Below, piece after piece: positions 41,754 to 42,631 of a DNA stretch of 64,000 bases. Made by a program: the position numbers and the translations under genes. Origin of the DNA: Escherichia phage KookSpook; sequence record PP925842.1, one strand, 5' to 3'. Below the pieces are notes generated by a model. The model made no database searches, was not told where the DNA came from, and worked only from the letters and a program-made list of their open reading frames with translations. Each line of letters opens with the position of its first letter. Positions within the stretch are counted from its first letter, which is position 1.

Positions 41754-41867
41754 ATTTTTAAGAACTCTCGTAAAAATTCTTAAAAATACAGACGATACCG
41801 GGAGAGTCATAAGTCTCACTCATTAAGTATTTCAAGACAAAATACAGTAACGTCTATTATCTTCCAG

Positions 41868-41975
41868 TTTAAGTCAAGGTGACTATACTTACTTATGCAT
41901 ATAAGGTCGCCATTTGGCAGATTACTCATAAGTCTTATAAAGTAAGTATTCCAGTTTAAGTCAAGGTGACTTAGT
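41868..41975. repeat. direct repeats ccagtttaagtcaaggtgact (2 copies)
   Basis: copies near 41870 and 41951 within an ~850-bp ORF-free region. Confidence 0.6.
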
Positions 41976-42329
41976 GGTTATGTCCTGCGGTATACTGAGG
42001 ACTCGGTTAGGTTAGGGTCATGACTCCCTACCTTTTTGCTGCTACTCAACAGGAGTTATCGCGAATTACCTGTGCTATTGTGCACCATTAGTGGCATCTC
42101 TCATGCCATCATTTCCCACTTCATGGATAGCTTGAAAAACTACTCCGATATGGAGAAAGAACTTCACTATCCTAGAATACCCTCTAAAGTTCTTCTTTAT
42201 GTCTGGACATAGTTAAATCGTAATAAAACTATTCAACAGACTGGTTGATTAGTCTGGAATCAACTACCGCGTGGTTTAGGCAGTGCGCAACTAACCTAGG
42301 AAGCTTTTACGTTAAAAGCATCAGTTATC

Positions 42330-42410
42330 CAGCTCTTACCGATCACAGGATTCGAACCTGCATCTTCCACCAGTTACGGCTTGATAATACCGTTTATACT
42401 AGATCGGCAG
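42330..42410 (-). other. tRNA-like element (possible pseudo-tRNA)
   Basis: T-arm gcagg-ttcgaat-cctgt and 7-bp acceptor gccgatc/gatcggt but no clean D/anticodon arms, no CCA. Confidence 0.3.
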
Positions 42411-42631
42411 TGTTACTACATAAGTGATTTCCACACCCCACCATCAATAAATTAAAGAAGAGTTTAGGGGAGAGGTTTCAGACGCCTCATTTTACACGTT
42501 CTAGCCACTAACCGGGATTGCCGCCCCCTGTGTACTAGTTTTCCAACTAACCCACCGACTCTATTCAATGCGCTCCGGTTGGGATTCTGCATTCAGCGTA
42601 ATCGGCTCGCTGTCCTCTAATTTAGGAATAT

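Follow-up and report, generated by a model that had tools for sequence, protein, structure and literature searches.

In phage T4, the transfer RNA (tRNA) cluster includes two stable RNAs that are not tRNAs, species 1 and 2, which are co-transcribed with the phage tRNAs. Likewise, the record of phage T5 (NC_005859.1) lists eight ‘stable RNAs’. Seven of these (RNAI, RNAIII, RNAIV, RNA1, RNA2, RNA2H and RNA3) are, like the T4 species, co-transcribed with tRNAs and presumably freed by tRNA-processing enzymes; the eighth, RNAX, is by far the largest. This report examines a locus of Escherichia phage KookSpook (PP925842.1), of which a stretch of 64,000 nucleotides (nt) was analysed, here called the window; all positions refer to it unless stated otherwise. 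At 41754–42631, an original prediction made from the sequence alone had noticed a region free of open reading frames (ORFs), and had suggested a long structured leader, a non-coding RNA or a cis-acting site. This ORF-free stretch is very probably the gene for RNAX, a large, structured, stable non-coding RNA of T5-like phages.

Two further groups of RNAs are comparable. GOLLD and ROOL are large, ornate RNAs of phages and prophages; in GOLLD the 3′ region is conserved and the 5′ region varies, at times with a tRNA in the linker (PMC12286853). Like GOLLD and ROOL, RNAX is a large phage-encoded structured RNA in or beside a tRNA island, lying at the island's edge and spanning 0.64–1.3 kilobases (kb); like GOLLD, it also has variable modules and an embedded tRNA-like element. 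In YrlA RNAs, one domain imitates a tRNA in its acceptor, D and T arms and is closed by a stem, so that no free tRNA is formed; the Yrn1 RNA of D. radiodurans has a 6-nt ‘anticodon’ loop, and in M. smegmatis YrlA a 7-base-pair (bp) acceptor stem makes the RNA a substrate of ribonuclease P (RNase P) (PMC4201824). The likeness extends to RNAX, whose tRNA-like domain combines a 7-bp acceptor, D and T arms, a 6-nt loop and a closing helix.

RNAX also differs from these RNAs. It is 5–10 times longer than YrlA-type Y RNAs, and whereas the small stable RNAs of T4 and T5 measure 70–170 nt, RNAX is a multi-domain RNA of 640–1300 nt. GOLLD and ROOL stem from Lactobacillales, rumen and marine sources, whereas RNAX occurs in phages of Enterobacterales; unlike that of GOLLD, its tRNA-like element is non-decoding and is closed by a covarying helix. 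A scan of the region with cmscan and Rfam 15 at expectation values (E) up to 10 gave no match to GOLLD, ROOL or other large-RNA models, nor to the Y-RNA/YrlA models, and no Ro60/Rsr (TROVE) gene stands beside RNAX, whose neighbours are YqeY-like, SleB-like hydrolase and SPFH genes. A like scan at E up to 5 of six relatives, among them the Sugarlandvirus form of 1.3 kb, gave tRNA matches only; weak SpF41, Hrs13 and U1 matches in these permissive scans were far under the gathering scores. RNAX resembles GOLLD and ROOL, but it is not a detectable member of either. So far it has been a bare annotation: Rfam 15 contains no RNAX family, no mention of it turned up in literature searches covering RNAX itself, the stable RNAs and transcriptomes of T5, and the structured RNAs of Demerecviridae, and neither a published structure nor a known function was found.

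The identification starts from homology. With the region as query, megablast returned 339 homologous phage records and blastn 519. Identity reaches 98% in the best match and is 92–95% in T5/BF23-type genomes, at 93–100% coverage. Since nearly all of the matched records belong to T5-like phages whose hosts are Salmonella, Escherichia and Klebsiella, the source phage can be taken, on sequence grounds, to be a T5-like phage of the genus Tequintavirus. In T5, the homologous 719 nt (40848–41566 of NC_005859.1) are annotated as misc_RNA rnaX (T5s08), ‘RNAX, stable RNA with unknown functions’; the rnaX annotation recurs in BF23 (784 nt), DT57C (636 nt) and Salmonella phage 5. Homologous sequence and the syntenic slot between promoter P 16-17 and tRNA-Arg(UCU) both identify the region as the RNAX ortholog. 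The locus is already known as an annotation; what is new is a family-wide architecture supported by covariation.

Each feature named in the original prediction was recovered in the sequence. The transcriptional setting is as described there, namely a consensus early promoter reading leftward into a region that has no ORF of at least 60 amino acids (aa) on its strand and ends at tRNA-Arg(TCT). This promoter, which agrees with the consensus at 10 of 12 positions, is ‘promoter P 16-17’ of the T5 and BF23 records, is kept in all relatives and genera examined, and leads into ~870 nt that hold no conserved ORF. On the minus strand of 41754–42631 the longest ORF comprises 42 aa, and on the plus strand there are only two ORFs with TTG starts, of 60 and 58 aa. 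The tRNA-Arg gene abuts position 41754 (Table 1).

Structure and covariation analysis across related phages, the check that had been proposed, revealed compensatory base-pair changes in several helices. For the tRNA-like domain, RNAalifold applied to 16 diverse sequences returned the acceptor stem, the T arm and a 3-bp stem, stacked on a 12-bp helix formed between the two flanks of the element, with the hairpin at 42319–42303 next to it. Changes on both sides were seen in 13 of these 30 pairs, and 99.4% of cells were paired; with 26 sequences, the number of compensatory pairs rises to 19 of 30, and the Pectobacterium phage DU_PP_V contributes additional compensation in the closing helix. None of 500 shuffles reached the observed values of pairing and compensation, and slid registers of the domain yielded 0–2 compensatory pairs in the 16-sequence alignment and 0–5 overall. 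The pairs of the acceptor, T and short stems covary. In the element, an acceptor-type stem of 7 bp is combined with a D arm containing GG and a T arm containing GGUUCGAAUCC; the place of the anticodon arm is taken by a 3-bp stem with a 6-nt loop. The ‘pseudo-tRNA’ that had been placed at 42330–42410 is a real element, with boundaries at 42336–42409, but one that forms a structural module set within RNAX, not a gene in decay.

Further helices are distributed along the remainder of the RNA. The hairpin at 42244–42264 follows the conserved AAACCACG (42270–42277). In domain D, 14 of 24 predicted pairs are compensatory among 23 sequences. This domain includes a hairpin whose loop, AGUCAUGA, is identical in 18 of 18 distinct variants from three lineages, including three distant phages, while its stem varies. 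In the 3′ module, the Epseptimavirus and Sugarlandvirus counterpart of the long branched hairpin is a different three-way junction with an outer stem of CGG/CCG or CAG/CUG. The core of the terminal hairpin, UUUACGAGAGUUCUUAAA, is identical in Yersinia and Pectobacterium phages.

At the opposite end, the RNA begins with a leader domain enclosed by helix P1. Its 12 pairs were followed in 29 sequences, with 0–2 unpaired cells per pair, and the changes are one-sided only. In T5-type RNAs the whole 150-nt leader domain is absent, yet P1 is kept and closed by a short loop; in Pantoea phage AAS21, one base is gone from each strand and a perfect 12-bp P1 stays. Within the domain, the stem of hairpin hp1 is CAGCG/CGCUG in most sequences and CAGCA/UGCUG in DU_PP_V. 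The loop of hp1 forms a pseudoknot, PK1, with part of the conserved GAAUAGAGUCGGUGGGUUAG, and the middle pair of PK1 varies between phages (C-G, U-A or A-U).

Table 1. Positions of RNAX, its structural features and its flanking elements in the KookSpook window, in the order of transcription
Feature	Position	Strand	Remarks
Sigma-70 early promoter	42632..42660	minus	−35 TTGCTA 42660-42655, 17-nt spacer, −10 TATAAT 42637-42632; 10/12 consensus matches
RNAX transcript	41754..42625	minus	5′ end ~42625 by promoter geometry; 3′ end adjoins tRNA-Arg
P1 helix, 5′ strand (CUAAAUUAGAGGA)	42613..42625	minus	pairs with 42447-42459
Hairpin hp1, CAGCG-AGCCGAUUA-CGCUG	42594..42612	minus	loop 42606-42600 in pseudoknot PK1 with 42560-42554
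Variable hairpin hp2	42567..42593	minus	closed by AAUGC/GCAUU (AGUGC/GCACU in BF23); lineage-specific insertion point
Conserved GAAUAGAGUCGGUGGGUUAG	42547..42566	minus	AGUCGGU (42560-42554) is the 3′ partner in PK1
P1 helix, 3′ strand, within conserved motif AAACUCUUCUUUAAUUUAU	42447..42461	minus	
Closing helix, 5′ strand (AUCACUUAUGUAGU)	42415..42428	minus	12 pairs, 7 compensatory
tRNA-like element	42336..42409	minus	ARAGORN ‘Ser(act)’; Rfam tRNA model 37.2 bits (gathering score 29)
Closing helix, 3′ strand (GCUGGAUAACUGAU)	42320..42333	minus	pairs with 42415-42428
Hairpin GCUUUU-AACGU-AAAAGC	42303..42319	minus	5 pairs, 3 compensatory (e.g. UA:11, CG:9, AU:6)
Hairpin GUUGAUU-CCAGACU-AAUCAAC	42244..42264	minus	pair 42260-42248 AU:2, GC:18, GU:1
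Domain D	41973..42120	minus	closed by AGUGG (42120-42116)/CCACU (41977-41973); hairpins 42092-42108, 41982-42002
Invariant-loop hairpin, 8-nt loop AGUCAUGA	42009..42033	minus	stem pairs covary
87-nt expansion segment	41885..41971	minus	repeat copy 41949-41971 plus 64-nt unit 41885-41948
Long branched hairpin, 3′ module	41790..41855	minus	predicted; little variation among Tequintaviruses
3′-terminal hairpin, 15 bp, UACG tetraloop	41754..41787	minus	last base adjoins base 1 of tRNA-Arg
tRNA-Arg(TCT)	41677..41753	minus	directly adjoins RNAX 3′ end; same layout in T5, BF23, DT57C

The pattern of substitutions also indicates which strand matters. Across the 30 pairs of the tRNA-like domain in 26 sequences, 55 of 780 cells (7%) are G-U pairs, which would be A-C mismatches on the opposite strand. 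Since G-U pairs are valid only on the transcribed strand, it is this strand that is under selection. The minimum free energy of the whole RNA has a z-score of −2.35 on the minus strand vs −1.36 on the plus strand. Together with the rnaX annotation in T5, BF23 and DT57C, the strand-specific covariation bears out the non-coding RNA among the options originally offered.

Other explanations have been weighed against this evidence. That the region is a site acting at the level of DNA (an origin, a nick site or a recombination hotspot) with functional repeats is extremely unlikely, and the suggestion of an origin or nick site does not hold up: although direct and inverted repeats are present, T5 DNA is annotated with site-specific nicks, and the locus is a hotspot for insertions and HNH endonuclease genes, the T5 and BF23 records put the nick downstream of the SPFH gene and outside RNAX, the repeats are lineage-specific and occur in nine records only, the composition and skew profile of the region shows no origin-like signal or change, and many G-U pairs are valid on the transcribed strand only. 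There is next to no likelihood that the region descends from a protein-coding gene that has decayed. Annotation pipelines do place small ‘hypothetical proteins’ here, and many deposited T5-like genomes carry such spurious entries, or odd tRNAs (Ser-ACT, SeC, ‘OTHER’), within RNAX; these ORFs, however, differ from record to record. A search for a conserved coding frame found no consistently kept ORF across 46 distinct homologs, in which the substantial ORFs are inserted genes only, such as an HNH_3 endonuclease, and the substitutions are paired across helices and show no codon periodicity. A working tRNA (Ser-ACU or a UGA suppressor) surrounded by the spacer of a decaying tRNA array is very unlikely too. 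Both ARAGORN and Rfam call a tRNA, its acceptor and T stems covary, and tRNA-Ser or tRNA-SeC is annotated in some records. A canonical tRNA, however, has a 5-bp anticodon stem, a 7-nt loop and a fixed anticodon, whereas here the 3-bp stem and 6-nt loop misfit the model, and the Rfam alignment leaves the 18 nt of the anticodon arm unaligned; the ‘anticodon’ varies among relatives, being called Ser(ACT), SeC(TCA) or undetermined, and in Sugarlandvirus a long GCUA-capped hairpin occupies this position. A CCA end is not encoded, and in most Tequintaviruses a U-U mismatch interrupts the acceptor stem. The 12-bp covarying helix of the flanks keeps the element embedded, five Epseptimaviruses carry a 42-nt non-tRNA module between the same flanks instead, and the region gives no second match to the tRNA model at E up to 10. 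The tRNA-like element is not a decoding tRNA. ARAGORN calls no transfer-messenger RNA in the window either; such an RNA builds its tRNA-like domain from its two ends and carries a tag reading frame, whereas the tRNA-like element here is contiguous and internal.

The main rival, which is unlikely but clearly ahead of the three readings just discussed, holds that RNAX is mainly a cis-acting leader or processing scaffold whose fold would govern how tRNA-Arg(UCU) and the mRNA of the SPFH/band-7 gene are matured, stabilised or dosed, with the freed RNA as a by-product. A single promoter serves the unit and no terminator lies between it and the end of the SPFH gene, the terminal hairpin stops exactly at the 5′ nucleotide of tRNA-Arg, and the order RNAX, tRNA-Arg, SPFH gene is kept from Tequintavirus to Pectobacterium and Pantoea phages. 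Nevertheless, a covarying, modular structure of 0.64–1.3 kb far exceeds what a leader needs; Epseptimaviruses, Sugarlandviruses and phiR2-01 have ORFs between RNAX and tRNA-Arg, where the 3′ hairpin stays with RNAX; and the annotators of T5 list RNAX as a separate stable RNA. The ‘long structured leader’ of the original prediction applies in a topological sense only, in that a single transcription unit has RNAX ahead of tRNA-Arg and the SPFH gene. Several observations nonetheless weigh against RNAX as a large stable RNA built as described here. The 5′ end annotated in T5 and BF23, 14 nt past the −10 element and equivalent to 42618, would cut away half of P1, and the status of ‘stable RNA’ rests on database annotation. 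Several predicted helices of the central mosaic domain and the 3′ module are shared by sequences that hardly differ from one another, and so covary little or not at all. Some lineages do without the leader domain, and some even without the tRNA-like element, which weakens any mechanism built on a single module.

If RNAX is a non-coding RNA, it may act in trans as a scaffold or decoy, a tentative proposal to which we give somewhat less than an even chance. Host RNA polymerase would transcribe RNAX, tRNA-Arg and the SPFH gene as a single early unit, and cleavage by RNase P at the 5′ end of tRNA-Arg would free the 3′ end of RNAX. The terminal hairpin and the compact fold may then shield the RNA from exonucleases, hence a ‘stable RNA’. 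The tRNA-like domain could engage a host or phage factor that recognises tRNAs, without being decoded: the tRNA elbow is kept, since the acceptor, D and T arms are, and engagement without decoding is suggested because the anticodon loop and the CCA end are absent. The invariant loops might mediate further RNA–RNA or RNA–protein contacts, or self-association. On a bolder reading, RNAX might be the Gram-negative, T5-family counterpart of GOLLD and ROOL and form an ornate phage RNA class of its own, either self-assembling, for example via the palindromic AGUCAUGA loop, or capturing a tRNA-binding host enzyme or a tRNA-directed defence factor early in infection; such a role is conceivable, though rather improbable. 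The sole hint of assembly into a homo-oligomer is the invariant loop, which holds the palindrome UCAUGA; the 8-mer GUCAUGAC (42017–42024) is likewise palindromic.

RNAX joins the large, ornate phage RNAs found near tRNA islands, such as GOLLD and ROOL, whose purpose is a standing puzzle. Unlike these, it is encoded by a classical model phage of E. coli, in which deletion, complementation, pull-down and cryo-electron microscopy are straightforward. Were RNAX indeed their counterpart, it would be the first such RNA whose function can be dissected directly, given how amenable T5 and E. coli are to genetics.

RNAX occurs in Tequinta-, Epseptima- and Sugarlandviruses, in phages of Pantoea and Yersinia, and in one Pectobacterium phage from a different subfamily. 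A covariance model for the tRNA-like domain, built from the 16-sequence alignment, matches Pantoea phage AAS21 with 147.6 bits, Yersinia phage phiR2-01 with 114.4 bits and DU_PP_V (Mccorquodalevirinae) with 101 bits, and all three phages also have the promoter, the invariant loop and the 3′ hairpin. In sequence, RNAX is conserved across Demerecviridae. Scans of IMG/VR mostly returned the same T5-like genomes, and in four IMG/VR contigs (L037, L039, L040 and L042) whose SPFH protein is 75% identical, the element is absent at that position. A pattern scan of metagenomes (GGGGTGYSGAA...GGTTCRA) was too unspecific: among the 80 loci screened by the covariance model, only a genuine tRNA-Asn matched.

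The family is mosaic in its architecture, with conserved blocks alternating with alternative modules. Lengths range from ~0.64 kb (DT57C and T5-like short-leader forms) to ~1.3 kb (Klebsiella Sugarlandviruses), or 671–1450 nt if the promoter is included. The window RNA pairs a BF23-type long leader domain (~215 nt) with a T5-type insert, a combination found in few records, and its tRNA-Arg and upstream gene are alleles different from those of T5/BF23-type relatives. The insert accounts for the repeats that had been noticed. An exact 23-nt direct repeat (41862–41884 and 41949–41971) is present, a 21-mer occurring twice in the window against 0.00 expected by chance, and the ‘cataagtct’ repeat was confirmed in two copies (41807–41834 and 41926–41953) that are 79% identical over 28 nt. 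The former is no general feature of the family, however, as it flanks an insert found in nine records. The copy at 41862–41884 is the ancestral AGUCACCUUGACUUAAACUGGAA motif; the other belongs to the 87-nt expansion segment, whose 64-nt unit folds into a hairpin and ends in 10-nt inverted repeats. The insert looks like the neighbouring 3′ module in diverged form, and this accounts for the ‘cataagtct’ repeat. It is present in nine records including T5, and BF23 and most relatives lack it; its position is the junction between domain D and the 3′ module, where Sugarlandvirus and the homologous locus L088 carry other inserts. With the insert limited to so few records and other inserts at the same junction, the direct repeats are best read, from sequence comparison, as part of a lineage-specific expansion segment and not as a cis-acting site.

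The RNAX locus is a hotspot for mobile genes. In two Epseptimaviruses (Salmonella phage fuchur and the phage of locus L035), an ORF of 159–160 aa with an HNH_3 domain directly follows the promoter and replaces the leader domain; between RNAX and tRNA-Arg, Epseptimaviruses have a further ORF, of 169 aa and unknown family. In Klebsiella phage K7PH164C4, an internal module of ~127 nt (GCGAAGCGACCAUACGCUGG...AAAUACGG) is duplicated in tandem (RNA-sense ~1815–2070 of locus L009), which makes this RNAX the longest seen, at 1450 nt including the promoter. In Obesumbacterium phage Ob_P (locus L080, 2499–2655), the 5′ flank and the tRNA-like element are kept, the 3′ strand of the closing helix is lost and annotated ORFs come next; this RNAX appears truncated or decayed.

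RNAX in the window has the same neighbours as in T5, where the YqeY-like T5.081 gene lies upstream and where tRNA-Arg and the T5.080 lipoprotein gene (SPFH/Band 7) follow downstream; the T5 record then lists a major nick and a bidirectional terminator; a SleB-like hydrolase gene is a further neighbour of the locus. RNAX stands at the upstream edge of an island of 24 tRNA genes called by ARAGORN at 29.9–42.4 kb on the minus strand. The upstream gene (42669–43103, minus strand) is assigned to PHROG 1460, ‘tRNA amidotransferase’, and is termed YqeY-like in other records. Its product is less than 60% identical (~43–45% among the matches listed) to the version in most T5-like phages, whereas the adjoining RNAX is 92–95% identical, which places a mosaic boundary at the promoter. 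The YqeY-like protein was considered as a partner of RNAX and found unsupported; despite the PHROGs label, it has no Pfam YqeY match. The upstream gene is matched in only three Klebsiella-phage records, and in the Sugarlandvirus loci examined a cell-wall hydrolase gene takes its place. On the other side, the tRNA-Arg(TCT) of the window is quite unlike the tRNA-Arg of T5 and BF23 in sequence, while both of its flanks are nearly identical, so that the exchange of this gene looks like a cassette-like replacement. After the SPFH gene, a strong GC-rich hairpin terminator of 13 bp (40640–40671) is the counterpart of the ‘bidirectional terminator’ in the T5 and BF23 records, beside which these records annotate the major DNA nick. 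Three Rfam tRNA or tRNA-Sec matches on the minus strand that ARAGORN does not call (37771–37845, 32645–32735 and 30986–31059) probably correspond to the ‘tRNA-like stable RNAs’ of T5 (RNA1, RNA2, RNA3 and others).

A few candidates were set aside along the way. Duplex folding in search of a long-range partner for AAACUCUUCUCU gave inconsistent partners, and the one that was consistent is the 5′ end, forming P1. An alternative hairpin, CAGACU/AGUCUG (42254–42234), was rejected as it is confined to Tequintaviruses and competes with the covarying hairpin at 42264–42244. An 18-mer of the 3′ hairpin has 49 matches in bacterial genomes, mostly single-cell or metagenome-assembled genomes of marine Alphaproteobacteria and none in Enterobacterales, and these were judged to be due to chance. 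Three records labelled ‘Campylobacter phage C13’ (MG065692.1) and ‘Listeria phage LM’ (OR847704.1 and OR848805.1) are 96–98% identical to the T5-like sequence studied here and are probably mislabelled or contaminants. Finally, the plus strand at 42013–42030 forms a terminator-like hairpin with a T-run, the mirror image of the hairpin with the AGUCAUGA loop, which could stop antisense transcription.

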